Source of the DNA: Staphylococcus phage vB_SurM-PSU4
Length of the DNA: 64,000 nt
Sequence record: OL436245.1
Reading direction: 5' to 3' (one strand)
The position numbers and the translations under genes are program-made. Within the stretch, counting starts at the first letter, position 1. Each line of letters opens with the position of its first letter. This document shows positions 3,301 through 64,000 of this stretch, piece after piece. Under the pieces are notes generated by a model. It worked only from the letters and a program-made list of their open reading frames with translations. It made no database searches and was not told the DNA's origin.

Positions 3301-3850
3301 TCCAGAAAATACAGGTTGTTTCTGGGAAGCTAAGATTATTTTTGAAGACATGGATGAAGGTGTAACGTTCGATATGCTTACTTGGCAACCAATTGGTAAC
3401 TATCAAGATATTGACTTAGGGGCAAAAGCTAGACAGATTAAACTTAGAGCTACATTTAAATCTAATAGATATATTTCCCCATTACTAAGCTCAAGTGACT
3501 TAACATTTACTACATTCTTAACTGAATTAACAGGTAGTTATGTAGGTAGAGCAATCGACATGTCAGAAGCACCATACAACACTATTAGAATAAGTTATGA
3601 AGCTTTCTTACCACAAGGAACAAAAGTAACACCTAAATATTCTACAGATAATGGTTCTACATGGAAAACGTTCACTGAGACACCAGATGTTAGAAGAGCA
3701 AACACAGAATTCTATAGATATGTTATAGAAGAAAAAGTTAAATCTAGTGGAACATATGATAACTTTAAAGTTCGTTTAGATTTAGAAACACAAAATAGCT
3801 TCTTAAGACCAAGAATTAGAAGACTTATGTGTACGATGAGAGAAGAATAA
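353..3850 (+). CDS. Large tail/baseplate structural protein (adsorption-associated tail protein-like, 1165 aa)
   Basis: 3.5-kb ORF with RBS AAAGGAGAGAAAATG. Its size and its position just upstream of the RBP pair match the ~1150-aa adsorption-associated tail protein of Twort-like Staphylococcus phages. Beta-rich, Gly/Thr/Asn-rich composition. Confidence 0.8.
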   Translation: MAVNLRTSPYNDRFDPRKDRVKLLFNPDRPLQQAELNEMQSIIEYYQKNFGDSIFKDGDIQSGLNFTLTQDNVLTLNPGYVYIGGRIRYYDGDDSIQLSGVGKETIGLKLTQTIITPDEDSSLLDQTNGVPSYFSRGADRLEEKLSIGLNDPTSAPIHVFQDGKLYIRSLNPEAEKFHTILAERTYDESGSYKVEGFNIFSEERPEDKGKDTVPVVIDAGKAYVEGFKVDKPTSTRISVPKSTATKKGTNESTVFNKSDNKITLANAPVKSVDRVSGQVLVTKEEVGRASAGDSADYLKNNTAFEVVKVWTESSPGNTLKEYKQGQDYVLTNGQEINWSPQGQEPQGGTSYYVSYKYTRTMREGTDYKVVNVNEGEGVLERTYLDFNLNGVKPIDQSVILVDYTYYLARKDVLMLNKYGDITRLEGEPDILRMAVAPQQTDPLNLKLGIVTVLPNSDEAYCEEDSVKRLSMSELQKLKTRLENVEYNQAVNALDQDAMEGQDPLTLRSVFSEGFISLDKADITNSNFGVSFSFEDAEATLQFTTAVNEPSIDKNKTNAHIWGRLVSAPFTEERALFQSQASETMNVNPYNIPNKQGVLRITPSEDNWIDEERITVTDQKTKTMTVNRWWRHLDDPNRFGSNEQAAFNNIKLDAGQSWGNQGRTAGAAYRYDTKYGRTGTMLEAGGTRTLEEAIEFIRVRDINFTVTGLHPNADNLYVLFDGIRCPIVPHTDRGFTKGSESGTIRTNAKGRAEGHFTIPAGVRCGTREVTIRNEESVASTSYSAHGRKKTVQDVIIRTRVTINLVDPLAQSFQFLDNRTISSLGLYFASKGDKNSNVTIQIREMGDQGFPTKVICAETVLNADDIKISNDASAETRVYFDDPMMAQAGKEYAIVVITENDDYTMWIGTRTQPKIDKPKETISGNPYLEGVLFSSSNASTWSVHQNSDMKFGVYTSRYEENGTIEFDPIENVEADRVVLMSSYLTPENTGCFWEAKIIFEDMDEGVTFDMLTWQPIGNYQDIDLGAKARQIKLRATFKSNRYISPLLSSSDLTFTTFLTELTGSYVGRAIDMSEAPYNTIRISYEAFLPQGTKVTPKYSTDNGSTWKTFTETPDVRRANTEFYRYVIEEKVKSSGTYDNFKVRLDLETQNSFLRPRIRRLMCTMREE

Positions 3851-3855
3851 TAAAA

Positions 3856-3882
3856 GGGCTATCAAGCCCTTTTTCTTACATA
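3856..3882 (+). terminator. Rho-independent terminator
   Basis: Hairpin AAGGGCT-ATCA-AGCCCTT followed by TTTTTC, immediately after the stop at 3850. Confidence 0.6.
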
Positions 3883-3908
3883 CAAAAAATACTTAAGAGG
3901 TGAAAGAA

Positions 3909-4079
3909 ATGCCTACAGAAAAAAGAGATTATTATTCAGGTGCATTATTATTTGTACCTACACGAGAAGAAAGAACAACAAAAAAGCTTAAAGAAGATTT
4001 GAGAAGTGAACTAGACGAAGTTAAAAAAATAAAAGAAGAATATATGAAAGAATTAAACAAATTGAGAGAAGGTAAATAG
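3909..4079 (+). CDS. Small hypothetical protein (56 aa, charged, coiled-coil-like)
   Basis: ATG at 3909 preceded by AAGAGGTGAAAGAA. In-frame stop TAG at 4077-4079. Absent from the ORF track only because it is under 60 aa. Confidence 0.4.
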   Translation: MPTEKRDYYSGALLFVPTREERTTKKLKEDLRSELDEVKKIKEEYMKELNKLREGK

Positions 4080-4082
4080 AAT

Positions 4083-6065
4083 ATGGCATTTGAATTTAAT
4101 AGCTTAACTGAAAAGCAATATTTATCTGATATGACTAAGGAAGTAAATAAGGTAGGAGAATACCTAAAGAATGAACTAACTAAAGAAGATGTAGAGACCG
4201 TAGATTCTCCTGACTTTGAAGATATTTTAAAATATATAAATGTAACAGGAAATTATTATGTAACAACCTCTAAAAACCAACCTAAAGATTCAAATTGGAA
4301 TGGTTTTGTTTTCTTTGAAAAGAGAAATAATAACTCCTACAAAATATATTTTAATCCTTATAATAATGAAAACTTATATTTAAGAACCTACCGTAATGGA
4401 GTACTATCTGATTGGAAAAAGTTTGTATTGGACGAAGAAACAAATAATTGGCAAAAATATAAATTTACCAATGAACAAGGTCAATATACTACACAAGAAG
4501 ATATAGATATTAGAGAATTAAATAATAGTAAAACAATATATGTTAAGAACTTAGTAGACCCTCCAAAACCTGAAATGAATGAAGGATGGTTAGAGACAAA
4601 AGTTCATGAGAATGGTAATACAAGTATCACAACATTCAATCCTGTTAATTCTACTACAACATATACAAAAATGCAAAAAAGAGCTAGGGAAGTACAAAAC
4701 CCTAACTTAATTAAAGATGCTTTATTTACAAAAATACCTCAGAGGTACACAGAAGAAACAGTAGATAAAGCTTGGAGCTCTCAAATAATTGGTGTATCAA
4801 GAGGCATAGATTTTGATACAGGAGTTAAATTTCAAGGTCAAAAAACAGTAGGTATTTCGGATACTACTTCATATAATCATCCATTAATAAGAAGTAATTA
4901 TTTAGAAGTAGGTAAAGATGTTAAAGTGGGAGACGAAATTACGTTCTCTTCTTACGTTATGGTTGATAATGTAGATGCTATGAAAGATAACTGGGTTTAT
5001 ATACAAATTGCTAAATATGATAGTATAAATTCAGACATAAATAATCAAATAGGTAGTGCTACAACGGTTAATGGAACTAATGCTATAGAAATAATTAAAC
5101 CAGGTGAGTGGGTAAGAATAACCAATACACAAACAGTTCCTTCAGGAGTTAAGTACATTACAGGTAACTTAAGAGGGAATTTAACTAGAACAGCCCCATC
5201 AAACAGTTGGACAGCTTATTTCGCACTACCTAAATTGGAAAAGGGAGATAAAGTTACCCCATTTATTACACATGTAGATGATAAGAAACAATTTGATGAA
5301 ATCTATACAAATTGGTTAGAAAACCCTGATGAACAATCTATATTAAATAACTACCCAACAGATATTAACAATGATAACTATTTCAAATATACGTTTTGGA
5401 AGAACGAAGTAGGAAATATGACTTTACAAGATTTAATACAAACACTACCTCAAGGTTTCCATACTTTTTACGCTCAAGGTGGTATAGAAGGGACTCCAAA
5501 AGGTAATTCTGTAAGAGGGACAGTTCAAGTAGATAATGATAATGGAGATACAAAATCAGGTCGTAAGTTTATTAATGCACAATTTACAGATTACGATGGG
5601 TTAAACTATAATTTGTATTACGATGATAATAGATTCAGTGAAGCAGACAGTCAAGAAGGGTGGTCTCCTTTAAGAAAGACAGAACAAGCAACATACTTGT
5701 GGGATGGTACCCTAGACTTAGGAGAAATAGGAGCTAAAGTTAAATTATCTGATAGTATACACAATTATGAGTTTTTAGATGTAACTTATTATACAAATGC
5801 AGCAGGGCATCTTGCTACTAGAAGAGTTAGAGTTTCTCCTGATTTCTCTGAATACTATTATATAAGAGACTTTAACTTAAGTAATAGTTCTACAGGAACA
5901 GGATTCGGTGCTTTCGAGGGCTATTTTATTGTATCTAATGATAATCCTATAGAGGCTGTATCTGGAATGTCTAAAAATTTAAGTGTTACAGATAAAAAAG
6001 TAAATAGATTTAATGAAAAAGGTGATATATCAATAAAACGTATAACAGGAATTAATACATTGTAG
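4083..6065 (+). CDS. Receptor-binding protein 1 / tail fibre (660 aa)
   Basis: Its N-terminus (MAFEFNSLTEKQYL...) is paralogous to that of the 466-aa ORF at 6493 (MAVEFNRITETDTFL...). The arrangement of a long RBP, a small gene and a shorter RBP matches the Kayvirus RBP locus. Confidence 0.75.
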   Translation: MAFEFNSLTEKQYLSDMTKEVNKVGEYLKNELTKEDVETVDSPDFEDILKYINVTGNYYVTTSKNQPKDSNWNGFVFFEKRNNNSYKIYFNPYNNENLYLRTYRNGVLSDWKKFVLDEETNNWQKYKFTNEQGQYTTQEDIDIRELNNSKTIYVKNLVDPPKPEMNEGWLETKVHENGNTSITTFNPVNSTTTYTKMQKRAREVQNPNLIKDALFTKIPQRYTEETVDKAWSSQIIGVSRGIDFDTGVKFQGQKTVGISDTTSYNHPLIRSNYLEVGKDVKVGDEITFSSYVMVDNVDAMKDNWVYIQIAKYDSINSDINNQIGSATTVNGTNAIEIIKPGEWVRITNTQTVPSGVKYITGNLRGNLTRTAPSNSWTAYFALPKLEKGDKVTPFITHVDDKKQFDEIYTNWLENPDEQSILNNYPTDINNDNYFKYTFWKNEVGNMTLQDLIQTLPQGFHTFYAQGGIEGTPKGNSVRGTVQVDNDNGDTKSGRKFINAQFTDYDGLNYNLYYDDNRFSEADSQEGWSPLRKTEQATYLWDGTLDLGEIGAKVKLSDSIHNYEFLDVTYYTNAAGHLATRRVRVSPDFSEYYYIRDFNLSNSSTGTGFGAFEGYFIVSNDNPIEAVSGMSKNLSVTDKKVNRFNEKGDISIKRITGINTL

Positions 6066-7938: not shown

Positions 7939-7975
7939 AAATACATGGTGGGTATGAATATTGAAAGGAGAACAA

Positions 7976-9721
7976 ATGAAATTATATTTGCAAAATATTT
8001 ATACTTACGTGGAATTTGGTGGTAACGAAGAAACGTTAAGGGAGGTTTTTAGGAAGAGGGTGCATACACATATAGGTGTAAGAGCACAAGGTTATCAATT
8101 TGTTAAAGCATTTAAACTTAAGAAATGGGATGGATATACAGACTTCTATGAATTCGATAAAGATAGATTTCCTAGTGGGCTTTTAGAACAAGTAAAAGAA
8201 TTATTATACGATTTACAGAATAGGTATACATTCCAATTTGATGTTGTAGATGAAAGAAGTGAAGCTTTCTTAGAACCAGAAGATATAACTAAAGAAATAA
8301 AGTTATTAGATAACAAGATAGGAACAATTACGCTAAGAGATTATCAACAAGAAGCTGTAGAGGAATCTCTAGTTAAGTATGATGGGCTTGTAAATATAGC
8401 GACTAATGGTGGAAAAACAGAAATCGCTAGTGGTATTATACAAGAACTTCTACCTTACTTAGAAAAAGGAGAAACGATTGCTTTCTTCACACATAGTAAA
8501 GAGATATTCCATCAAACAGCAGATAGAATGAAAGAGAGACTAAACATTCCTATAGGTAAAATAGGTGCAGGTTCATTTGATATAAAACAAGTAAACGTGG
8601 TAATGATACCTACAGTTAATGCAAACCTTAAAGACCCTAGCGAGGGTGTAACTTTAACTCAGAAACAAATGATATATAAGAAAGTTTCTTTACATGTATT
8701 ACCTAAACTATCTACAACACCTAACAAAAGAACAATGTTATTCTTAATGTTAGAACAAATGAAAGTTAAAACAAAAGCAGACCAAGCATTTAAAGAAGAA
8801 CTAACTAAAATATATCAAGAACATAAATCAGATTCAGAATTAATGATGAAATTAAATACGTATAATGTTAAGTATCAAGAAATCCTTAGAAAGAAAAATG
8901 AAAAGAAGTATGATAAGTACTACAAGATGAAAGACTTCTTACAGAGTATTGTATGTTTCATTGGTGATGAATTCCATCATGCTAAATCTGATACTTGGTA
9001 TACAAGTTTATTACAATGTGAAAATGCTTTATACAAAATAGGACTAACAGGTTCTATTGACCACAGTGACCCTCTAACAGTACAGAGATTAAAAGCGATA
9101 TGTGGAGAAATACTTATTAAAGTATCTAATGATTATCTAATAGAAAGAGGAATATCAGCTAGACCAACAATCAATTCAATACCTATAGCTAACCCAACTG
9201 ACTTAGAGGAAGAAAATCAATACCAAGTAGCATATGATAAAGGTATTGTGAATAATGAATTTAGAAATACATTAGTTGCAAAAATAACAGAAAAGTGTTA
9301 TCATGATAATAAAGGTATTTTAATTATTGTTAATTTCTTACAACATGGTAATAATATATCGGAATTACTAGAAAGTTATGATATTCCTCATGAATTTATT
9401 TACGGTGATTTAGAAACAGATAAACGTAAACAGTATTTATCTGATATGAAGTCAGGTAAACTTAAAGTTCTTATTGCTACTTCACTTATAGATGAAGGTG
9501 TGGATATTTCTGGAATTAATACTTTAATTATTGCAGCAGGAGGAAAATCCTTAAGACAGGTATTACAAAGAATAGGTCGTGCTTTAAGACGTAAAGAAGA
9601 AGACAATACAACACAAATATATGACTTTATAGATATGACTAATAAATTCCTCTATAAACATTATTTAGAGAGAAGAAGTATTTATGATAACGAAAACTTT
9701 GAAGTAAGAGAAATAAAATAG
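7976..9721 (+). CDS. SF2 DNA helicase (DExH)
   Basis: Motif I TNGGKTE, motif II DEFHH, motif VI QRIGRALRR. ATG at 7976 follows AAAGGAG; the track's TTG start at 7961 is less likely. Confidence 0.85.
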   Translation: MKLYLQNIYTYVEFGGNEETLREVFRKRVHTHIGVRAQGYQFVKAFKLKKWDGYTDFYEFDKDRFPSGLLEQVKELLYDLQNRYTFQFDVVDERSEAFLEPEDITKEIKLLDNKIGTITLRDYQQEAVEESLVKYDGLVNIATNGGKTEIASGIIQELLPYLEKGETIAFFTHSKEIFHQTADRMKERLNIPIGKIGAGSFDIKQVNVVMIPTVNANLKDPSEGVTLTQKQMIYKKVSLHVLPKLSTTPNKRTMLFLMLEQMKVKTKADQAFKEELTKIYQEHKSDSELMMKLNTYNVKYQEILRKKNEKKYDKYYKMKDFLQSIVCFIGDEFHHAKSDTWYTSLLQCENALYKIGLTGSIDHSDPLTVQRLKAICGEILIKVSNDYLIERGISARPTINSIPIANPTDLEEENQYQVAYDKGIVNNEFRNTLVAKITEKCYHDNKGILIIVNFLQHGNNISELLESYDIPHEFIYGDLETDKRKQYLSDMKSGKLKVLIATSLIDEGVDISGINTLIIAAGGKSLRQVLQRIGRALRRKEEDNTTQIYDFIDMTNKFLYKHYLERRSIYDNENFEVREIK

Positions 9722-9737
9722 AAAGTGGTGGGTTAAT

Positions 9738-11282
9738 GTGGATAAGCAAGAAGTACTTAAATATTTAAAAGAAAACAGTAAGCAAAGATTATTTAATATA
9801 AGAACTAAGAAATTACTAGCTGAAAAATTAAGTATCTCTATACCTATATTAAATAGTAGACTAAAACAACTAGAAGAAGAGAATAAGATTAAAGTAGAAA
9901 AGAAGAAACAAGGTTTAGATATTATTATTAATACAGAAGTAGACCTTCAATATTTTCTCAATACTAATGAAAATATTATCGAATCTGATAGTGATTATGC
10001 AAAAGACTTGAGGTCTAGGGTATTTTACAGAAAAGAGAATAAGAGAACACCTAAAGAACAAGTTGTCTTTGATTCGATTACAGATGAGGAAAGAAAAATA
10101 ATTCAAGAAATGAACTTTAGAATGAGATATAGTAGATTTCCAACCAAAGAAGTCTTTGAAGTATCCTCTGACCCAGAGAAACATTTTAAGACTTATATAC
10201 TCTCGAAAATATATGATAAACTTTGTACAATACACTTAAAGGTTAGAAAAAGAAAGTTTAAAGAACAAACAGAGAAAGCAATTAAGAATAATGAATCACC
10301 AGAATACATTTCTTCTTTAGAAGCTAAATCTAATTATTATGCAAAACAAGTTGTTAAGTACGAAAGACAACAAACTCTTAATGATGATTTCTTTGGTAAC
10401 ACAACTTATGGTTATTTCCTATACCTGTATCATCTATCTTATGAAATAGATATAATTAAATTTATGATAAATGTATTTAGTACACATAGTTTTATGTTTG
10501 AGCAAGGTAAAGAAGATAAACCTGTACCTCAACCTGTAGAGTTTACAGAACAAAGAAAGATAGATAATTATTATAAATATCTGGATGCAATTAGAAATCG
10601 TATGAATAGTGATAATAGACAACTCACTAACTACACACAACGAATGAATAGTGAAGTTGAATATAATGAAGATACAATCTTACAACAATTAAAGCTATTA
10701 TTAATTAAAGACTATCATCATTTAACTTATGATATTAATACAGTATTTAATGTAGCTATGGATTTAGAAGATTATCAAATGGGTTTAATCGAGCAGAAAC
10801 AACAACACTTACTTAATTATTACCAAACGTTCAAAGAAGAAATAAAACAATTTGAACAAGAGGACAAAGAAAAGATAGATAGGTTTGTTAAGCTACTAAT
10901 TATAGATAGTTATGCACCTAAAACAATTACTAATACTTATAGATTATCTATGTTCCCTCTACAAAGAATGTATTTAATTGATTTAATTCTTTCAGAACAA
11001 ACTAGAGCTTTATCTGTAGCACATCTAAGAAGGATAGGATTAATCCGACCTCTTAATAACAACGTCTTAGAGATTGAAGGTTTGACTGATACTGAAGCAG
11101 ATATACGATTAGGAGCAGACTTTGTAAATGCACATAATGATATTATAGACTATAATACTTTAAGGATGTTTGGTTACTACACAGGGTTAGATATAGATAT
11201 GAGAGAAATAAAACACATACTGGAAAAATATAATAAAAAACATTTGATTCCACTTACAAAGTATGGTATGTTAAATATATAG
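9738..11282 (+). CDS. Putative replication initiation / DNA-binding protein (Rep-like, 514 aa)
   Basis: GTG start. The N-terminal ~60 aa look like a winged helix. It sits between the two helicases, as the Rep gene does in Twort-like phages. This functional call is by synteny only. Confidence 0.6.
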   Translation: MDKQEVLKYLKENSKQRLFNIRTKKLLAEKLSISIPILNSRLKQLEEENKIKVEKKKQGLDIIINTEVDLQYFLNTNENIIESDSDYAKDLRSRVFYRKENKRTPKEQVVFDSITDEERKIIQEMNFRMRYSRFPTKEVFEVSSDPEKHFKTYILSKIYDKLCTIHLKVRKRKFKEQTEKAIKNNESPEYISSLEAKSNYYAKQVVKYERQQTLNDDFFGNTTYGYFLYLYHLSYEIDIIKFMINVFSTHSFMFEQGKEDKPVPQPVEFTEQRKIDNYYKYLDAIRNRMNSDNRQLTNYTQRMNSEVEYNEDTILQQLKLLLIKDYHHLTYDINTVFNVAMDLEDYQMGLIEQKQQHLLNYYQTFKEEIKQFEQEDKEKIDRFVKLLIIDSYAPKTITNTYRLSMFPLQRMYLIDLILSEQTRALSVAHLRRIGLIRPLNNNVLEIEGLTDTEADIRLGADFVNAHNDIIDYNTLRMFGYYTGLDIDMREIKHILEKYNKKHLIPLTKYGMLNI

Positions 11283-11297
11283 GAAAGGAGTACTAAG

Positions 11298-12743
11298 ATG
11301 AGTAAAACGATTAAAGATTCTATCTTAAGTAAATCTATTAAAGATATTGGGTTTGCGAAGGATGTTCTTACAACTTTACCTGGTAAGCTATTTACAGATA
11401 ATGATAATATGAGTACAATATTTACAGTTCTTAAAAGAAATGCTGTGACTAACTCTGAACCATTATCTCAGCAAGCATTATCAGCTAAGATTGAAGAACT
11501 ATTAGATAGAAGTAAAAAAGACCCTGAAGAAGTAACACAAACAATCCAATATTTAGATGGCTTATATAATGTTGAAGTAGATAGTCAAGATAAAGGATTA
11601 AATAAAGAGATAGAGAGATATGTTAAAACAGAATTATCTAAAAATGCTCTAGCTAAATTCTTATCTGAAAACAAACAAGAAGATTCAGAGAACTTGAATG
11701 AACTTATAGATGAGTTAAAACAAATAGACATTAAAGATATAGCAGGAACAAATGGTTCTTTTATTGACTTCTTTAATGATGTAGATAAAAAACGTGAACT
11801 ATTAAATACAATCAATCAAAATAAATTCTCTACAGGTTATCATGCTTTAGATAGAGAAATCGAAGGTGGGATTGCAAGAGGGGAAGTTGGAGTATTCATT
11901 GCACCTACAGGTAAAGGTAAATCTTTCTTTGCTTCTAACTTAGCAAGAAATTATGTTAAGCAAGGACTTAATGTTTTATATGTAGCATTAGAGGAATTAG
12001 AAAACAGATTAGTACTAAGAGCAGAGCAACAATTTGCTGGTATAGATAAGAAGACTTTAATGAACTCTGAGATGCAACTGAACGAAGACTTATTTGAAGG
12101 TATCCAAAGTATTTATAAAAGAGATGGACATATGTTTGGTGATTATTATATTGCTAAATACCAACCTAATGAACTTTCAATTGGTAACTTGGAACAATTG
12201 ATTATAGATACAACGATTAAAAAAGGTAAAAATATAGATGTAGTTGTAATTGACTATCCTAAACTTATGAGAAACCAATTTGATAGATACTATGATATAA
12301 GTGAGTCAGGTGGTAAGATGTTTGAAGAAATACGAAGTCTAGCACAGAAATATGATTTTGTATGTTGGACACTAGCTCAAACAAATAGAACTGCATATAG
12401 TGCAGAAGTAATTACAAGTGAACATGTAGAAGGTTCTAGGAAAATACTTAACACTGTAGAAGTAGCTTTAGTTCTTAACCAAACAAGTGAGGAATTTAAA
12501 TCTGGATTTATGAGACTTTATCTAGATAAAGTTCGTAACGGTACAAGAACAGGAGACCCATTCGTACATCTGAAAGTAGAACCAGAGAAAATGAGAATTA
12601 GAGATGAGACTGAAGATGAATTAATTGAACATAAATCCTTAATTAATGATTCAGACAGCAAACCGAATAACAGTAAATTTGAGAAGACTGAAAATAAAAG
12701 AGAAGCTTTAAATAATAAATTCGGAGGTATGTCCATTGGATGA
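11298..12743 (+). CDS. DnaB-like replicative helicase (RecA-fold C-terminal domain)
   Basis: Walker A IAPTGKGKSF, Walker B VVVIDY, and TLAQTNR. Strong RBS GGAAAGGAG. Confidence 0.85.
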   Translation: MSKTIKDSILSKSIKDIGFAKDVLTTLPGKLFTDNDNMSTIFTVLKRNAVTNSEPLSQQALSAKIEELLDRSKKDPEEVTQTIQYLDGLYNVEVDSQDKGLNKEIERYVKTELSKNALAKFLSENKQEDSENLNELIDELKQIDIKDIAGTNGSFIDFFNDVDKKRELLNTINQNKFSTGYHALDREIEGGIARGEVGVFIAPTGKGKSFFASNLARNYVKQGLNVLYVALEELENRLVLRAEQQFAGIDKKTLMNSEMQLNEDLFEGIQSIYKRDGHMFGDYYIAKYQPNELSIGNLEQLIIDTTIKKGKNIDVVVIDYPKLMRNQFDRYYDISESGGKMFEEIRSLAQKYDFVCWTLAQTNRTAYSAEVITSEHVEGSRKILNTVEVALVLNQTSEEFKSGFMRLYLDKVRNGTRTGDPFVHLKVEPEKMRIRDETEDELIEHKSLINDSDSKPNNSKFEKTENKREALNNKFGGMSIG

Positions 12744-57974: not shown

Positions 57975-58059
57975 GTGAAATGAAATACCTGCTTCTATGC
58001 TTGACAGCTATGAAGCGGGTATGTTATATTTAATATATAATCAATTAGGAGGTGTTAGA

Positions 58060-58164
58060 ATGATTACAATTGGAAGTATATTCTCAGGTTTCGTAGTAGT
58101 ATTAGTGTTATTAACTATCATTGTAAGTAGTATTTATTCTTTAGTAGATTTATTTAAAAAATAG
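58060..58164 (+). CDS. Tiny TM peptide (34 aa)
   Basis: ATG after AGGAGGTGTTAGA. Sequence MITIGSIFSGFVVVLVLLTIIVSSIYSLVDLFKK. Preceded by a TTGACA promoter. Confidence 0.4.
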   Translation: MITIGSIFSGFVVVLVLLTIIVSSIYSLVDLFKK

Positions 58165-58168
58165 TATT

Positions 58169-58197
58169 GACAATCTTATAGAAATCATTTATACTAA
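58169..58197 (+). promoter_or_regulatory. Sigma-A-like promoter (TTGACA, 17-bp spacer, TATACT)
   Basis: ATTGACAATCTTATAGAAATCATTTATACTAAG. Confidence 0.6.
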
Positions 58198-58227
58198 GTA
58201 TATACCAAATAAAAGGAGACGATTTAA

Positions 58228-58626
58228 ATGAAAAAATTATTAGGAAGTTTAGTTATAGGTAGTGCATTATTACTAGGGGCATGTGGAAATGAAGAACAAG
58301 TAAGTAAAGAGGAACCAATAAAAGAAGAAGCACAAGTAGAAACAAAGGTAGATGACCCTAACGTACCTTGGTGGGAAGAAGAAGGTGGACAAGAGAAACT
58401 AGAAGAAGTACCTTATGAGGAAAATGGAGCTACTGTAGAATCAGACGAGGAAGAATGGGTAGACCCTAACGCAGAACAAGCTGAAGAAGAGTTATTAGAA
58501 TCTGAAGGTGGAAATTATGGTTATGCAGAAGGCGAGTATGAGAGATGGAAAGAAGGCGTATATCGTCAGGTAGAAGAAAATAGAGAAAAAGAAAGAAAAT
58601 TTCAAGAGAATGGTTATTATGAGTAA
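58228..58626 (+). CDS. Secreted, highly acidic lipoprotein (lipobox LLGAC)
   Basis: N-terminal sequence MKKLLGSLVIGSALLLGACGNEE, a signal peptide with lipobox. The mature part is about 35% Glu/Asp. Confidence 0.7.
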   Translation: MKKLLGSLVIGSALLLGACGNEEQVSKEEPIKEEAQVETKVDDPNVPWWEEEGGQEKLEEVPYEENGATVESDEEEWVDPNAEQAEEELLESEGGNYGYAEGEYERWKEGVYRQVEENREKERKFQENGYYE

Positions 58627-58861
58627 AGAGGTGAACCTGTTGAATAAAAAAGAAAATACGATTTTAACAAATAATGAAGATGGTATGGATATTTACATTG
58701 ATAATAAAAAGAATATTATGTATGTGTCTATGAATGAAAGAATTACAGATAAAGGCATAACTAAATTAAAAGCAGGACTAGAACATAGTACAGATTATAA
58801 GGTAATTGTAATGGAAAAAATTAATAGCATTAATTATATAGGAGGGGAACTAAATGGATGA
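58619..58861 (+). CDS. Hypothetical protein (80 aa)
   Basis: ATG overlapping the end of the upstream gene. Confidence 0.5.
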   Translation: MSKEVNLLNKKENTILTNNEDGMDIYIDNKKNIMYVSMNERITDKGITKLKAGLEHSTDYKVIVMEKINSINYIGGELNG

Positions 58862-59225
58862 TAAAATGATTAATGAAGTAGGAAAGTATTTGAAAGACAT
58901 AAGTAGCCAAGGATTTGAAACATATGTACAAGGGGTTTGGGCTTCTAGTATAGTGTTTACCCTAATAGGTTTAATATGTTTAGCTATTATTCCTTTTGTA
59001 TTTAAATATGTAGACCGAACTATTGATAAGTTAGAGGAGAAAAGTTCCTTAAATGACTCAGACGTATACGTATTAGACTCAAGCACAACAATAGCTATTT
59101 CAGGTTGGTTAATTATAGCAATATTAGCATGTGTAGGACTTTTATTGATTGGTTTTAACATTATAGGAATATTCGCACCTGAGTATATAGCTATCAAAGA
59201 ATTAATTAGTAATATTAAAGGATAA
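58854..59225 (+). CDS. Membrane protein (123 aa, 3 TM)
   Basis: Hydrophobic helices. RBS GGAGGGGAAC. Confidence 0.6.
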   Translation: MDDKMINEVGKYLKDISSQGFETYVQGVWASSIVFTLIGLICLAIIPFVFKYVDRTIDKLEEKSSLNDSDVYVLDSSTTIAISGWLIIAILACVGLLLIGFNIIGIFAPEYIAIKELISNIKG

Positions 59226-59240
59226 TAGGAGGAAAATTAA

Positions 59241-59534
59241 ATGGTTAAAATAACAGAAACAGGAGTACCTAAAGAAGAGATGGAAACAGTTTGTGTATGG
59301 GATGCACTAAATAGTTGTTGGATAATCGAGAGTTCAACTAGGAAACACATCACAAAAATACTAAAACAATATCCTCAAGCAGAGGTTGTAGAACAATATG
59401 AAAATGGCACACCAACATATATTAGAGTAAAATTAGAAGAGGACTTAATTAGCTTTAGAAAACCTGTTAAGAAAGAGACGAGAGAGCAAATGTCTAAATT
59501 AGCACAAGAGAGATTCGGTAAAAAAGACAAGTAG
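59241..59534 (+). CDS. Hypothetical protein (97 aa)
   Basis: RBS AGGAGGAAAATTAAATG. Confidence 0.6.
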   Translation: MVKITETGVPKEEMETVCVWDALNSCWIIESSTRKHITKILKQYPQAEVVEQYENGTPTYIRVKLEEDLISFRKPVKKETREQMSKLAQERFGKKDK

Positions 59535-59553
59535 GGATAAGGAGGAAAAGACT

Positions 59554-59736
59554 ATGGGGTTTGCAATGATTATTAGTATCATAGCTTCTGTATACTTATT
59601 GAGAAATGTATGGGAATGTTATCAAGTTGGTGATAAAGAGCAACTTTGGTTTCAATTAATGTTACTAGCATTTTCACTGTGTGTTGTATATCATTCATAT
59701 CAAGTATGGACAACACCAGTGTACTATTACTATTAA
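59554..59736 (+). CDS. Small membrane protein (60 aa, 2 TM)
   Basis: RBS AAGGAGGAAAAGACTATG. Confidence 0.55.
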   Translation: MGFAMIISIIASVYLLRNVWECYQVGDKEQLWFQLMLLAFSLCVVYHSYQVWTTPVYYYY

Positions 59737-59756
59737 AAAATTAGGAGGAATTTATA

Positions 59757-60686
59757 ATGACAAATAAAACAAGATACCAAACAAAGGTACTAGAATTATT
59801 AGATGATTTACTTACAGAAAAAACACTAAATGACGAGAAGCTTAAACAAAAAGTGAAAGAATATATAGGTTCAAAAGTTGCAAGTATAGATGCAGTATTA
59901 TTCGATGTTGATGGTGATGGTAAAAAGACTGCTTTAAATAATATTATTGAAAAAGTGAAGAATGAGAATCTAGTAGAACTAGAATCACTTTTAGACAAGT
60001 ATGAACTAGATTTTGACCTTGAATATTTATCAGGAGATTTCCAAGTATATACCAAGTTAGATGGTAAAGAGATTGTTATAAATAAAGGTTCAGAAAAAGA
60101 CTTCGTTTTATTTATCGGAGACCTAAATTTTGAAATGAATTCTCAAGAATTAGAAACTTTCCTAGATAGAAATGTACAAAAAGAGATTGGTAGTATTTTA
60201 AATGGAGAAAAGCTAAGTAAAGTTTTTAACTATTTAACTATTGAAGGTTATGCTTTTGATGAGAAAAGTAATAAAATTAGTCTAAAATTTCCTGGAAGAG
60301 ATTTAGAATTTTTTGAGGAAAAAGGTAAGTTATATTTTTCAAACTTAGTAGGGTATATAAAACCTTTAGATATTGAAAAGGAAGAAGATTTAAATTCTAT
60401 TATAAGTGGAAATGCTTTAGCAGAAGATGTAATCGAAGAGGTTCAAAAACATTTAGACTTATGTTACTTTGAATATGAACTCAATTACAATAATGACAAT
60501 ATTACTTCTATAATATTTGAAAGTAGAGAAGCATTTGTTATTATTAAAGTTCTTGAAGAAAGTAATAAGATTACTATTCAAGCACATGATAATGATGGAT
60601 ACACAGTACATTATCAAGAACCATTAGTATATAGAACAATAGAAGAACTAGATTTACTTATATCAGAAATGTTAACTACTCATTAA
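59757..60686 (+). CDS. Hypothetical protein (309 aa)
   Basis: RBS AGGAGGAATTTATAATG. The last long ORF before the repeat-rich non-coding region. Confidence 0.65.
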   Translation: MTNKTRYQTKVLELLDDLLTEKTLNDEKLKQKVKEYIGSKVASIDAVLFDVDGDGKKTALNNIIEKVKNENLVELESLLDKYELDFDLEYLSGDFQVYTKLDGKEIVINKGSEKDFVLFIGDLNFEMNSQELETFLDRNVQKEIGSILNGEKLSKVFNYLTIEGYAFDEKSNKISLKFPGRDLEFFEEKGKLYFSNLVGYIKPLDIEKEEDLNSIISGNALAEDVIEEVQKHLDLCYFEYELNYNNDNITSIIFESREAFVIIKVLEESNKITIQAHDNDGYTVHYQEPLVYRTIEELDLLISEMLTTH

Positions 60687-60815
60687 GTTGAGTAGTTTTT
60701 TTATGTTTAATCAGAGAGCTAATAGGAGCTTGTTTTAGGTAAGTAGAAATAAAGAAGGTAGGATTAATCCTAAAATGAAATAAAGTCCAAGGAGACCACC
60801 TTAGAGTGTCTCTGT

Positions 60816-61180
60816 AAGAGTAAAAAGCATAAGTATGAATAAAGAAATACCAAAACGTAAAAAAGCATAAGTATATATGAAGTTTTGTCCAATCGTAAAA
60901 AGCCTAAGTATGTTTCTAGAATATCCAATTCATATTTAAAGGTAACTTGAAAATGGAAAAAGCATAAGTATAAATGAAGAAATTTCAAATCGTAAAAAGC
61001 CTAAGTATGTTTCTAGAATATCCAATTCATATTTAAAGGTAACTTGAAAATGGAAAAGTATAAGTAGTTTTTAACTTTTATCAAATCGTAAAAAGCATAA
61101 GTAAAAACTAGCTTTAATAGAAACGTAAAAAGCATAAGTAGTTTTTAACTTTTATAAAAACGTAAAAAAGACAAGTAGGA
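60816..61180 (+). repeat. Iteron-like array: at least 9 copies of a ~16-bp motif (GTAAAAAGCATAAGTA and variants), including a ~70-bp segment duplicated exactly
   Basis: Copies begin at about 60819, 60856, 60894, 60958, 60991, 61054, 61087, 61124 and 61161. An identical ~70-bp block sits at about 60889-60958 and 60986-61055 and contains a TTCTAGAA palindrome. Confidence 0.8.
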
Positions 61181-61396
61181 ACTAGGTTTCCTCGCCCTAT
61201 AAAAAATATAGACCGCAAAAAACACTAGGAATATTATTCCCAGTGTATTGTATAATTTTTTTTATAGAATATTTATAACATTATATTCAAAACAAATACT
61301 ATTATAGCAGACTGATATATAATTTCAATACTTTTTTACAAATTAAAAGGGAAATTTTTCACTTTATGACAATTTAAAAAAGTGTAAAATTGGTTC

Positions 61397-61425
61397 TTGA
61401 CAAATCGGCTTTTATCCTTTATCAT
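61397..61425 (+). promoter_or_regulatory. Sigma-A consensus promoter (TTGACA, 17-bp spacer, TATCAT) driving a ~240-nt non-coding leader
   Basis: TCTTGACAAATCGGCTTTTATCCTTTATCATAAT. No ORF of 20 or more codons before 61676. Confidence 0.55.
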
Positions 61426-61586
61426 AATAATTGGAGGGGTCTGTCTGTCTTATATATAGGTTATTCTATAAAAAAGTTATATAATAAATATAGAATTATA
61501 TAAAAAAATTATTCTATTTATTTTTTACCTAATTTCTAGTTTCTACCATATAAATGAAATTTTAAGACCTAAAAAAGTTTTTAATT

Positions 61587-61615
61587 TTGGGGGTTGCAAA
61601 CTGAATTAACTTAGT
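61587..61615 (+). promoter_or_regulatory. Second promoter (TTGCAA, 17-bp spacer, TATAGT) upstream of the 61676 gene
   Basis: GGTTGCAAACTGAATTAACTTAGTGTATAGTATT, followed by the small hairpin GATAGA-AAAAA-TCTATC. Confidence 0.5.
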
Positions 61616-61675
61616 GTATAGTATTAGACAGATAGAAAAAATCTATCTAACTAAAAACTAATGGAGGTAATTTTA

Positions 61676-61978
61676 ATGGGAAAGAATAAAGATATACAAA
61701 ATATAATAGGGGTATTCGATTTATATGGTGCCATAGATAGACGTAATGAAAATTATATCGTATACGGTAAACCACAAGGCGAATATTTGCAGTTACTTAT
61801 ACAGACTAATCAAGGATATATTGAATTCTATCAAAAACAGAAGTTTTTTAAAAAACAGTTACCGCAAGAATATGGAACGATGTTTCATAAATACGGTTTA
61901 ACATTTTTATATATTAATAGAATGTTATATATCATTAGGAATAAAAAAATAATAAATCAAATTGAAATTCTTGATTAA
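61676..61978 (+). CDS. Small early-type protein (100 aa)
   Basis: ATG at 61676 follows AATGGAGGTAATTTTA. Confidence 0.55.
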   Translation: MGKNKDIQNIIGVFDLYGAIDRRNENYIVYGKPQGEYLQLLIQTNQGYIEFYQKQKFFKKQLPQEYGTMFHKYGLTFLYINRMLYIIRNKKIINQIEILD

Positions 61979-62020
61979 TATATTTAAATAAAAAAATTAT
62001 AGAATAGGGGAAAATAAAAT

Positions 62021-62188
62021 ATGAAAACTGTTCAAATTATAAAAAACGTAAAAGTACAAAAAAATAATTTAGTTGTAGGGGATTATATAAAAAGTGAATT
62101 AAATGATACACAATATAATATTACCGTAACTAAAATAATTGAAAAATTAAATGGTTTAACTTTAGTTGATGGGATTGTAGCAAAATAA
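62021..62188 (+). CDS. Small protein (55 aa)
   Basis: RBS AGGGGAAAATAAAATATG. Followed by the hairpin AGTGCTTTAAC...GTTAAAGCACT. Confidence 0.45.
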   Translation: MKTVQIIKNVKVQKNNLVVGDYIKSELNDTQYNITVTKIIEKLNGLTLVDGIVAK

Positions 62189-62191
62189 AAA

Positions 62192-62226
62192 AAGTGCTTT
62201 AACCTTTTACCACGTTAAAGCACTAC
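62192..62226 (+). terminator. Stem-loop (11-bp stem) after the small gene; A-run upstream and a weak U-run downstream
   Basis: AGTGCTTTAACCTTTTACCACGTTAAAGCACT. Confidence 0.35.
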
Positions 62227-62244
62227 CAAATTTAAAAAAACTAT

Positions 62245-62456
62245 TGCAATTATCTTATAACTTGATATAATAGTATTTGTAAGGTAATCAAAAAGGAACT
62301 TAAGCAAATAACGAAAAATATTTAAAATAAGACTTGCATTTACATTAAAGATGTAGTATCATAATAGATGTAAGGGAAAGAAACACAATACACCTTAAAA
62401 ACTTTTTAAAAAAGTTAAAGAAAACTATTGACAACATAGAAACAACATGTTATTAT
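62245..62456 (+). promoter_or_regulatory. Three stacked sigma-A-like promoters with no intervening ORF
   Basis: TTGCAA-16-TATAAT at 62245-62272; TTGCAT-17-TATCAT at 62335-62363; TTGACA-17-TATTAT at 62428-62456. Confidence 0.5.
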
Positions 62457-62534
62457 TAAGATAACAAATAAGACAAGCCACTAGCAAATAAGGAAATTAA
62501 ATAAAAAAATTATTAAAAAGGAAGTTGATTAATT

Positions 62535-62822
62535 ATGACAAAGAAAAATTATTTATATACAGAAACTCACACAGTACAAAATAAAGAAATTGAAGTTTTT
62601 AGAATTAAAAATGACGTGAACGGTAATCCACGTTATGTCGTACACTTTAGAGACCTGGGCATCGGTTTATGGGACTATGACAACATAAACAAACTATACG
62701 GATTTAATAAATATCGTGCCCAATGGTTTGGCGGTGGTGTAGTATTTCAAAGCTATAATATTGAAGATACTCTAAATTATGCACTAGAAACAGTTAAAGA
62801 AAAAGAAGCGGTTAAGAATTAA
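62535..62822 (+). CDS. Small early-type protein (95 aa)
   Basis: Preceded by the conserved leader cassette AATTAAATAAAAAAATTATTAAAAAGGAAGTTGATTAATT-ATG. Followed by the hairpin AAGCGGTT...AACCGCTT. Confidence 0.6.
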   Translation: MTKKNYLYTETHTVQNKEIEVFRIKNDVNGNPRYVVHFRDLGIGLWDYDNINKLYGFNKYRAQWFGGGVVFQSYNIEDTLNYALETVKEKEAVKN

Positions 62823-62871
62823 AACCGCTTCTGAATTAAATAAAAAAATTATATAAAAAGGAATTGATAAT

Positions 62872-63144
62872 ATGAATTTAGAAATAGAAACTAAACCAGT
62901 TAAAACACTAAAAGCAATTAAAGACGATACTAGAAATATTAAAAATAGTATAGCAAGTCATTTAGGATTAGAAAGAGAACAATTTAAATTATCTAATGGA
63001 TTAATAACTTTAAAAGGTTATTCAGAAGAATTTAAATGCTGGTATAATTTAACTAGCACGATTGGTAATTTCCCTAAATATTTAAAATCAGAATTATATA
63101 ATGAATACAAATTATATTGTAATGTAGAATTAAAAACTAAATAA
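62872..63144 (+). CDS. Small early-type protein (90 aa)
   Basis: Preceded by the leader cassette AATTAAATAAAAAAATTATATAAAAAGGAATTGATAAT-ATG. Confidence 0.6.
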   Translation: MNLEIETKPVKTLKAIKDDTRNIKNSIASHLGLEREQFKLSNGLITLKGYSEEFKCWYNLTSTIGNFPKYLKSELYNEYKLYCNVELKTK

Positions 63145-63180
63145 TTAAATAAAAAAATTATATAAAAAGGATATGATATT

Positions 63181-63456
63181 ATGACAAAATATATAATAAC
63201 TGAGTGCGGAGATATCTCAATAGAAAATAAAAAGTTAAAAAATACTATAAAAGAATTAATTAATAAAGAAATAAAAAATATTGAAGATAACACTATTGAT
63301 GAAGATAAAGAATTAGCAGAAAAAACTATAAAAAAATTATCTAATTTAAAACCATATAATAGAGATGGATTAAAACAGTTTAACAATATATTAAATATAT
63401 TATCAGTTTGGGAAGGTGCTTACAATCCATATGAATTAGAATACAAAGAAATTTAA
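63181..63456 (+). CDS. Small early-type protein (91 aa)
   Basis: Preceded by the leader cassette AATTAAATAAAAAAATTATATAAAAAGGATATGATATT-ATG. Confidence 0.6.
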   Translation: MTKYIITECGDISIENKKLKNTIKELINKEIKNIEDNTIDEDKELAEKTIKKLSNLKPYNRDGLKQFNNILNILSVWEGAYNPYELEYKEI

Positions 63457-63596
63457 TAAAAAAGTTATATAATATCCTTAGGATTAATTTCCTAGGGATT
63501 TTTATTTGTTTAAATTTATATAAAAAAAATTATATAATAATTACTGTATAGAATAAAAGAAAAATTGAATAACTTTAATATTGATTAATTTATTTA

Positions 63597-63662
63597 TAGA
63601 ATAACTAAAATATAGAGTAACTAAAATATAGAATAATTAAAATATAGAGTAACTAAAATATA
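63597..63662 (+). repeat. Four tandem copies of a 16-bp unit (TAACTAAAATATAGAR)
   Basis: ATAGAATAACTAAAATATAGAGTAACTAAAATATAGAATAATTAAAATATAGAGTAACTAAAATATA. Confidence 0.7.
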
Positions 63663-64000
63663 TTAGAACCTGGGAATTCTTTAACCACCCCACTGGATAA
63701 CATTATAATTATATTGCCTACCCACCTATTAAACTTTTTAATTAATTATAGATAATCTTATTCAATAGTTATTGTATTGTGTCCGCTTCAATACTTATTT
63801 TATTCTATAATTTTATTATTTAATTGTGGGCTAATCAATGCTAATGATATTATATTGTGTACTAATGAATAGTTAATGAATTGTATTAGGTGGATAATGA
63901 ATTGTAATCAATTGTATAATATTTTTATAGTATTTGAAGCGGTTGTATTCATTTGTTATTATATAAAAAAATTATATAGTTTACTTTAGTCAATTAACGT

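Follow-up and report, generated by a model that had tools for sequence, protein, structure and literature searches.

A conserved array of TAAGTA-containing direct repeats in the early region of Staphylococcus phage vB_SurM-PSU4 and its counterparts in other Twortvirinae

Introduction

Tandem repeats close to the genome end have been described for kayviruses. Their unit genomes terminate with a tandem repeat of 35 bp (unit TATTAYTACTACTAAGTACCTTTGTTATGTACTAC) that is variable, contains TAAGTA and is located directly ahead of the right long terminal repeat (LTR) (PMC6445280). The LTRs themselves are bracketed by the 12-bp boundary motif TAAGTACCTGGG / CCCAGGTACTTA (PMC6022877, PMC4111496, PMC7596081). 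In phage K the last partial 35-bp unit runs into ...TAAGTACCTG^GGAATTC... (the caret marks the junction), an arrangement that we verified in K and Stab23. Here we describe an array of direct repeats in a 64,000-nucleotide stretch of Staphylococcus phage vB_SurM-PSU4 (PSU4; sequence record OL436245.1). This stretch is referred to as the window, and positions in PSU4 are window positions. Like the kayvirus junction repeat, the array is a non-coding tandem repeat with units of ~36 bp located towards the right end of the unit genome, contains TAAGTA and is hypervariable in copy number, and for both a role in replication or packaging has been proposed (PMC6445280, PMC6022877). However, the two units can be aligned at the hexamer only, and while the kayvirus repeat runs into the physical terminus, the PSU4 array is located 2.5 kb upstream of the homologous terminus motif. 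We present sequence comparisons suggesting that the array belongs to a module of the early gene region which is shared across the Twortvirinae.

Two further systems are comparable. Iteron origins (lambda ori, P1 oriR, R6K, RK2) likewise consist of phased direct repeats of 17–22 bp in one orientation, located in non-coding sequence by AT-rich DNA. The PSU4 array differs from them in having no adjacent initiator gene and no DnaA box recognizable on reading the sequence, in its period of 37 bp as opposed to ~22 bp and in its unconstrained copy number. In phage T5, the injection-stop or first-step-transfer region is repeat-rich and non-coding and bounds the pre-early genes in the LTR. By analogy, the PSU4 array may also be regarded as a repeat-rich non-coding element at the inner border of the earliest-expressed genes, near the genome end of a phage that has long terminal repeats. 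The two are not similar in sequence, and the comparison is an analogy only; Twort-like phages are not known for two-step DNA entry.

Structure of the repeat array and its conservation in relatives

The array comprises nine direct-repeat units at 60813–61200, all on the + strand, as determined by reading the sequence and with repeat finders. Each unit contains a 17-bp core, CGTAAAAAGCMTAAGTA (Table 1). The start-to-start distances are 38, 37, 60, 37, 59, 37, 37 and 37 bp, i.e. the period is 37 bp with two variant units of 59/60 bp that carry a conserved insert of 22/23 bp. A first-pass annotation, made from the letters of the window alone, had reported ~16-bp repeats within a non-coding region of about 1 kb. 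Both were confirmed, the gap extending from 60687 to 61660, whereas the irregular spacing of 30–70 bp given there has to be replaced by the phasing described above. When scanning with the 16-mer GTAAAAAGCATAAGTA and allowing up to three mismatches we found 8 matches within 60820–61177, every one on the + strand; nine units are reached by counting the divergent copy at 61050–61066. The whole window contains 10 such matches compared to 3.3 ± 1.7 expected, and none of 100 shuffles of the window yielded 10 or more.

A perfectly duplicated block of ~70 bp had been noticed as well. The 69 nt quoted at the time are indeed present twice, and the maximal exact duplicate measures 70 bp (60891–60960 = 60988–61057). 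It is enclosed by a tandem duplication of a two-unit segment of 97 bp (37 + 60 bp), which is recent in PSU4; relatives without this duplication have 5–7 array units. The palindrome TTCTAGAA pointed out in the block is not conserved and is probably incidental, since relatives read TTCTAGTA.

Nine same-strand copies of (C/T)AAGTA(G) within 400 bp make the array the densest cluster on either strand, the next densest containing 5. The core itself occurs essentially nowhere else in the window, and the same holds for the LTR of phage phiSA_BS2 (BS2). Scanning 185,579 bacterial and archaeal genomes for the core returned single chance matches only (80, in unrelated bacteria), and when IMG/VR was searched generically for TAAGTAG triplets in phase, the more than 120 scattered matches amounted to noise. 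The core is not among the published promoter elements of phage K, and promoter-like matches within the array occur at about the frequency expected by chance (46 versus 39 expected in the region). As single strand, the array shows no significant structure (z = -1.45), and an Rfam scan of 59000–64000 gave zero matches at E ≤ 1. The array is also not CRISPR-like, as had been stated before: the conserved part measures 17 bp, the 20-bp “spacers” recur in few types, and there is neither an Rfam match nor a cas-like neighbor.

A solitary copy, GTAAAAAAGACAAGTAGGGATAAGG, with 88% identity to the last array unit is located at 59518–59542. It lies at the 3’ end of an open reading frame (ORF) of 97 amino acids (59241–59534) and is kept in BS2. 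The family of this ORF is LTR cargo in Romulus, SPJ2 and Fi4S2, where it occurs at two places per record.

PSU4 is a Twort-like Staphylococcus myovirus resembling Baoshanvirus (Herelleviridae, Twortvirinae). Its closest deposited relatives, with 91–93% nucleotide identity, are the Baoshanviruses phiSA_BS1 (BS1), BS2, JDF86, Golestan101-M and RSM-J51Sa. The array was compared among six genomes that were deposited or came from IMG/VR and among seven or more different metagenomic contigs, the latter reached via the family of the 309-amino acid protein encoded next to the array. The alignment to related phages, proposed earlier as a check, placed an array at the syntenic site in every relative examined, i.e. 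in the five Baoshanviruses, in the IMG/VR contig and in at least seven metagenomic relatives, about 14 in total. It always follows a gene of 306–309 amino acids, the terminator of that gene and a conserved “entry” block of 115 bp. Strand and 37/60-bp phasing are constant among the relatives, unit order and copy number are variable: most relatives have 3–7 units, PSU4 has 9 and BS1/BS2 have ~19–20 near-identical ones. We compared 37–64 distinct units from 6–14 phages. Their 17-bp core shows strong conservation, whereas about six types can be distinguished for the 20-bp spacer; between pairs of units, the identity is 0.69–0.78 in the 5’ core and 0.50 in the spacer.

In BS1, BS2 (3336–4250 of the BS2 locus), Golestan101-M, RSM-J51Sa and one metagenomic relative the array is interrupted by a homing-endonuclease gene of the HNH/NUMOD4 type (302–304 amino acids). 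In each case the insertion follows the second unit. The gene is absent from the array in PSU4, JDF86 and several metagenomic relatives. One metagenomic contig stops within the 37-bp array and another ~130 bp past the last unit. Tandem repeats of this kind commonly break short-read assemblies, and the deposited copy numbers, including the 19–20 units of BS1/BS2, may therefore be unreliable.

A related module in other Twortvirinae

In PSU4 the elements next to the last unit are, in this order, a C-rich box, an A-run containing a mini-palindrome, GACCGC, a hairpin and TATAATTTTTTTT. This exit block can be aligned with K, Stab23, Twort and the Sepunavirus BE25. Its part at 61202–61291 is 88.5% identical to positions 3098–3191 of the K LTR and also matches the LTR of Stab23. 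The K segment holds the annotated terminator of K (3123–3148), located between gp008 (+ strand) and gp009/treI (- strand).

Each of these phages has repeats of its own at the equivalent place. Phage K carries four 23-bp repeats with the core CTAAGTAGCTCCC at 2952–3045, directly upstream of the exit-block homolog and inside the annotated LTR. Stab23 has ~7 CTAAGTAGCTCCC repeats with a period of 23 bp (5599–5763 of the record), again inside the annotated LTR. In Twort, for which the LTRs are annotated too, a stretch of 120 bp holds four TAAGTA(G) copies, with gpORF205 on one side and the terminator of the annotated treI on the other. BE25 has three copies of CAAGTAGT at a distance of ~35 bp, followed by CCCCTAAAAAAGATAT...ATAGAAC, a hairpin, TATAATTTTTTT and minus-strand genes. 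Cross-genus alignment yields a common order of last repeat, C-box, A-run with ATATAGAC, hairpin and the invariant TATAATTTTTTT, downstream of which the minus-strand gene treI is often located. The hairpins of Twort and BE25 are unrelated in sequence and clear on direct reading. RNAalifold predicted no pairs for the exit hairpin, since those of Twort and BE25 misalign; the structural conservation of this hairpin is read directly from the individual sequences.

Because the exit block is homologous and the other lineages have their own arrays directly upstream of it, the sequence evidence identifies the array as the form taken in the Baoshan lineage by a module conserved across five or more lineages of the Twortvirinae. 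We define this module by three or more same-strand (C/T)AAGTA(G) copies within ~400 bp, directly 5’ of the homologous block and in a region of early and Tre genes; PSU4 has nine copies in this setting. The genera have the hexamer or heptamer core, its orientation, the early-gene context and the position by the C-box, A-run, hairpin and TATAATTTTTTT in common. They differ in period (~17 bp in Twort, 23 bp in K and Stab23, ~35 bp in BE25, 37 bp in the Baoshan lineage) and in the sequences flanking the hexamer. The other genera have arrays of 3–7 copies, and mapped LTRs enclose those of K, Stab23 and Twort; the array of PSU4 is outside the LTR as predicted from homology of the terminus motif.

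In the searchable literature we found neither a description of a TAAGTAG-repeat module nor one of the CTAAGTAGCTCCC repeats of K and Stab23 or the TAAGTA(G) clusters of Twort and BE25. The module appears to be previously undescribed; it can be grouped with the repeated protein-binding sites well known from the control regions of phages.

Proposed function and alternative explanations

The array is constrained in its core sequence and in its position. It occurs once in the genome, on a single strand, and is placed between convergent terminators in the Baoshan lineage, at the point where the conserved early operon 58061–60686 meets mosaic Tre cargo. At the same time it tolerates large changes in copy number and the insertion of a mobile gene. 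We assign a probability of roughly 0.55 to the proposal that the array is a conserved early-region (host-takeover) module, the cores of which bind one DNA-binding protein to give a boundary or regulatory nucleoprotein complex; both the binding and the role of the complex are what we infer. A binding array for a DNA-binding protein, which was among the functions considered in the first-pass annotation, is still the most plausible general reading of the sequence.

According to this proposal each core would be an independent site for one sequence-specific DNA-binding protein, encoded by the phage or by the host, and the array with its bound protein would form a nucleoprotein boundary next to the bidirectional terminator. 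It would chiefly act as a transcriptional roadblock or insulator, or else in the control of the early region. Such a boundary or regulatory role is the more tentative part of the statement, and we hold it to be clearly less than an even chance. An origin-type loading site would be the main alternative, and the titration of a factor would be another function in which the number of sites matters. Since the phasing is neither conserved nor helical, a cooperative iteron filament is disfavored and a function dependent on the number of sites is favored. Copy number would drift by unequal recombination or slippage, as exemplified by the 97-bp duplication in PSU4 and the ~20 homogenized copies in BS1/BS2.

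Several points weigh against this interpretation. No binding protein was identified: the adjoining 309-amino acid protein has no domain match, and no known fold resembles its model. The genera differ in unit period and share only the motif of 6–7 nt and the position, and by our own estimate ~0.6 shared hexamers are expected by chance between two 36-mers of such composition. The spacers are also non-random with an identity of 0.50, so that duplication history could explain part of the apparent conservation of the core. The start of the PSU4 LTR (see below) is placed by homology. Finally, K has no terminator between gp008 and its array, which is therefore probably transcribed and may act at the RNA level.

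A replication origin would be a special case of a binding array. Here the repeats would act as iterons to which a phage initiator binds, such as the helix-turn-helix (HTH) protein encoded at 9738–11282, with unwinding in the AT-rich DNA to the right. We consider this unlikely, although a number of observations are in its favor. Nine phased 17-bp direct repeats, within the range of ~17–22 bp typical of iterons, lie in a non-coding region of ~1 kb which is insulated from transcription. The GC content falls to 21–22% at 61300–61750, compared to 25–33% upstream of it, yet it is lower elsewhere (16% at 63100–63400). The gene at 9738, called “Rep-like” in the first-pass annotation, does code for an HTH DNA-binding protein (514 amino acids, phrog_1098, no Pfam domain) and is flanked by genes for a UvsW-like superfamily 2 helicase and a DnaB-like helicase (7961–12743); however, it is 50 kb away from the array. 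No initiator gene adjoins the array, and reading through the sequence revealed no TTATCCACA-like DnaA box. The repeats lack helical phasing (37 bp correspond to 3.5 turns, and K has 23 bp), their period is not kept between genera, the copy number spans 3 to 20, and there is no GC-skew inflection at the array. Moreover, two transcriptome studies of phage K place the candidate origin between gp190 and gp191, reported as the only untranscribed locus of K, although this origin is itself a prediction only (PMC9241854, PMC11598898). This implies transcription of the array in the K LTR. The window does not contain the K-type origin repeat, and the intergenic region of the K candidate origin is not detectably conserved in Baoshanviruses.

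The array could also be a functionless minisatellite, born by slippage in a tolerant intergenic spacer and kept as a recombination hotspot. This would agree with the range of 3 to 20 copies including recent duplications, with the insertion of the homing-endonuclease gene without evident harm, with the viability of kayvirus 812h1 lacking its separate junction repeat (PMC6445280) and with the clustering of recombination junctions in LTR and early regions (PMC8065394). Nevertheless, we regard it as improbable: the core is kept while the spacers diverge into several types, the array is found at the same place by the same terminator block in five lineages that otherwise share little non-coding sequence, and not one of the relatives examined lacks it.

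Our first hypothesis, drawn from the 35-bp repeat of the kayviruses, was that the array marks the point where unique DNA meets the right LTR and is recognized by the terminase; an LTR boundary had also been suggested in the first-pass annotation. A tandem unit of about the right length (37 bp versus ~35 bp) and a hypervariable copy number (3–20 among relatives) speak for it, as do the start of Tre-type cargo and of strong sigma-70-type promoters right of the array and the collapse of sequence conservation among relatives just past it. We scored the mapped LTR junctions of K, Stab23 and Twort at each window position. Those of K and Stab23 produced one match that stood out, at 63661–63700 (score 40 versus 13.3 ± 3.0), while for the Twort junction there was no comparable match anywhere in the window. 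This K-type terminus motif, 2.5 kb downstream of the last array unit, is present in every relative with a long enough locus, always 1.1–4.6 kb downstream of the last 37-bp unit. Because this distance is variable, a role of the array in positioning the cut is disfavored. With the motif as start, BS2 has a K-like LTR of ~8.2 kb, extending to a conserved right-boundary block which is homologous to the right LTR edge of K and is preceded by TreU in Golestan101-M. The right edge of the PSU4 LTR is not contained in the window; in four relatives we found no consistent direct or inverted word of at least 9 nt linking the left junction at the 37-bp array to the right LTR boundary; the same procedure applied to K as control recovered its inverted repeat TAAGTACCTGGG. 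Considering the junction match, the conservation of the motif in relatives and the lack of a partner motif at the array, the first base of the PSU4 LTR is predicted at 63673. The 37-bp array does not abut this base and would lie outside and upstream of the predicted LTR by 2.5 kb instead of forming its edge, and the equivalent arrays of K, Stab23 and Twort are not termini but lie within the LTRs. The junction hypothesis was therefore rejected and now seems to us very improbable.

What corresponds in PSU4 to the kayvirus junction repeat is another tandem array with 16-bp units (63547–63662, or 63527–63662 in a wider delimitation), which ends exactly at the terminus motif, TTAGAACCTG^GGAATTCTTTAACC. 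Among the relatives examined, 16-bp repeats ahead of the terminus are found only in PSU4 and one IMG/VR relative, the others having non-repeated AT-rich DNA. We also considered an LTR start near 57.6 kb, at which a K-type promoter of the first LTR gene at 58001 and the LTR-borne homologs of the 97-amino acid ORF in Romulus, SPJ2 and Fi4S2 had hinted. It was rejected, as this stretch is fully coding and contains no terminus-like motif.

With regard to RNA, UCCC-type motifs are used by regulatory RNAs of Staphylococcus aureus to pair with Shine-Dalgarno sequences. That the repeats act within a transcript (the 3’ untranslated region of the early operon or minus-strand read-through) by base-pairing or through an RNA-binding protein is the least probable of the alternatives, for although the K array directly follows gp008, the units of K and Stab23 carry UCCC-type motifs and small RNAs have been reported from the K LTR, including snc001 at 3114–3628 adjoining the array (PMC9241854), the Baoshan lineage has terminators on both sides of the array, most of its units lack C-rich motifs, and neither significant structure nor an Rfam match was detected.

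Flanking regions and neighboring genes

The coordinates of the array and of the features surrounding it are compiled in Table 1.

Table 1. Features of the array and its surroundings in the PSU4 window.
Feature	Position	Strand	Evidence or remark
K-type early promoter TTGACAgCTATGAAGCGGGTATG, heads operon 58061–60686	58001–58035	+	Matches K LTR 425–479 and Stab23 LTR 227–272
Intrinsic terminator at the end of the upstream early operon (58061–60686)	60674–60697	+	Terminator scan: 9-bp stem, then T-run
Conserved “entry” block	60698–60812	+	Sequence and spacing kept in all relatives
Array, nine units with core CGTAAAAAGCMTAAGTA	60813–61200	+	Repeat finders, core scan, comparison with relatives
Array cores 1–5	60819–60835, 60857–60873, 60894–60910, 60954–60970, 60991–61007	+	
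Array cores 6–9	61050–61066, 61087–61103, 61124–61140, 61161–61177	+	
Tandem duplication of a two-unit 97-bp segment	60860–60956 / 60957–61053	+	94% identity; encloses the exact 70-bp duplicate
Exit block: C-rich box CCTCGCCC (61190–61197), A-run with mini-palindrome CTATAAAAAATATAG, GACCGC	61190–61216	+	Conserved after the last unit in nearly all relatives
Hairpin 61222–61246, predicted minus-strand terminator, then invariant TATAATTTTTTT(T) at 61252–61264	61222–61264		Terminator scan and cross-genus alignment
Separate 16-bp tandem array TATAGAATAACTAAAA, ~7 copies, abuts the terminus motif	63547–63662	+	TRF
K-type left LTR terminus motif TTAGAACCTG^GGAATTCTTTAACCACCCC	63663–63690	+	Best window match to the K and Stab23 junctions; aligns with the termini and the first part of the LTRs

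In the terminator scan the array is bracketed by convergent terminators, i.e. that of the upstream operon on the + strand and the exit hairpin, which is read from 61246 to 61222 on the minus strand. The entry block contains a solitary TAAGTAG (60740–60746), which is located 90 bp ahead of unit 1 in all relatives, a perfect 14-bp palindrome TAGGATTAATCCTA at 60759–60772 and a hairpin at 60786–60805 that the scan reported as a terminator-like site on the minus strand. TAGGAT is a frequent motif bordering rearrangements in kayviruses (PMC6445280).

The ORF of 309 amino acids adjoining the array upstream is specific to the lineage. It has no Pfam domain and matches only a PHROG of unknown function; its AlphaFold model (pLDDT 67.6) gave TM-scores below 0.25 in a Foldseek search against the PDB, and it is not paralogous to the inserted HNH gene. 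The promoter at the head of its operon is nearly identical to that of the first LTR gene of K and Stab23, and in PSU4 it is sited in the unique right arm.

Past ~61270 the relatives diverge completely and contain different small genes. In PSU4 treI appears to be deleted; its terminator hairpin and ~40 nt resembling the 3’ end of treI remain at 61222–61328, and many relatives have a minus-strand gene of 71–112 amino acids at this position. A strong promoter-like site on the minus strand (61328–61301, TTGAAA-16-TATAAT with TG) is found here, from which the predicted transcript to the hairpin would be only ~80 nt long. The strong sigma-70-type promoters right of the array are at 61397 and 62428. 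The ORF 62535–62822 belongs to the Pfam family Phage_TreK (E = 5e-42), and at the nucleotide level 85% identity to K LTR 4149–4680 was found. A motif TTAAATAAAAAAATTAT..A.AGG recurs at 61984–62009, 62497–62522 and 62836–62861, directly 5’ of the small early ORFs 62021, 62535 and 62872; judged by its placement it looks like a shared translation-initiation or promoter-proximal cassette.

Further repeats were noticed around the LTR ends. Three copies of a 31-bp repeat, ATTGTGGACTAATCAATAGCTAATGAATTAT, lie at 63823–63917, less than 250 bp into the predicted LTR; this is the non-coding leader, which in K carries early promoters. K, Twort and all Baoshanviruses have four GTCAACA copies immediately beyond the right LTR boundary (outside the window), and K and Stab23 have an inverted GTTGAC 35–110 bp upstream of the left terminus. 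GTCAACA/GTTGAC may be another conserved cis-element flanking the LTR. In Twort (MT151386) the 17-mer AACCCCAGAACTTTTTC spans the mapped start of the right LTR and is repeated 340 bp upstream in the non-coding pre-LTR spacer of 520 bp.

Conclusions

Twort-like myoviruses such as phage K, ISP and Team1 are the main therapeutic phages against staphylococci, and the cis-acting DNA signals of their host-takeover regions are almost uncharacterized. Two arrays that are easily conflated, the repeat at the LTR junction and the internal array of the early region, have now been separated, and the predicted LTR start of PSU4 at 63673 may serve to correct the orientation and annotation of such genomes. The hypervariable copy number of the array breaks short-read assemblies and could be used as a strain marker. 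The conserved module is defined to an extent that it can be directly tested for protein binding, origin activity and transcriptional insulation. It is a speculative idea, to which we attach low confidence, that (C/T)AAGTA(G) arrays by the treI terminator represent an unrecognized cis-acting control element of the Twortvirinae as a whole, serving as the actual early replication origin of Twort-like phages, as a T5-like stop or boundary signal setting off the DNA and genes that act first after injection, or as a decoy that titrates a DNA-binding protein of the host during takeover. If this were true, the copy number of the array, which varies between near-identical therapeutic phages, would tune infection.

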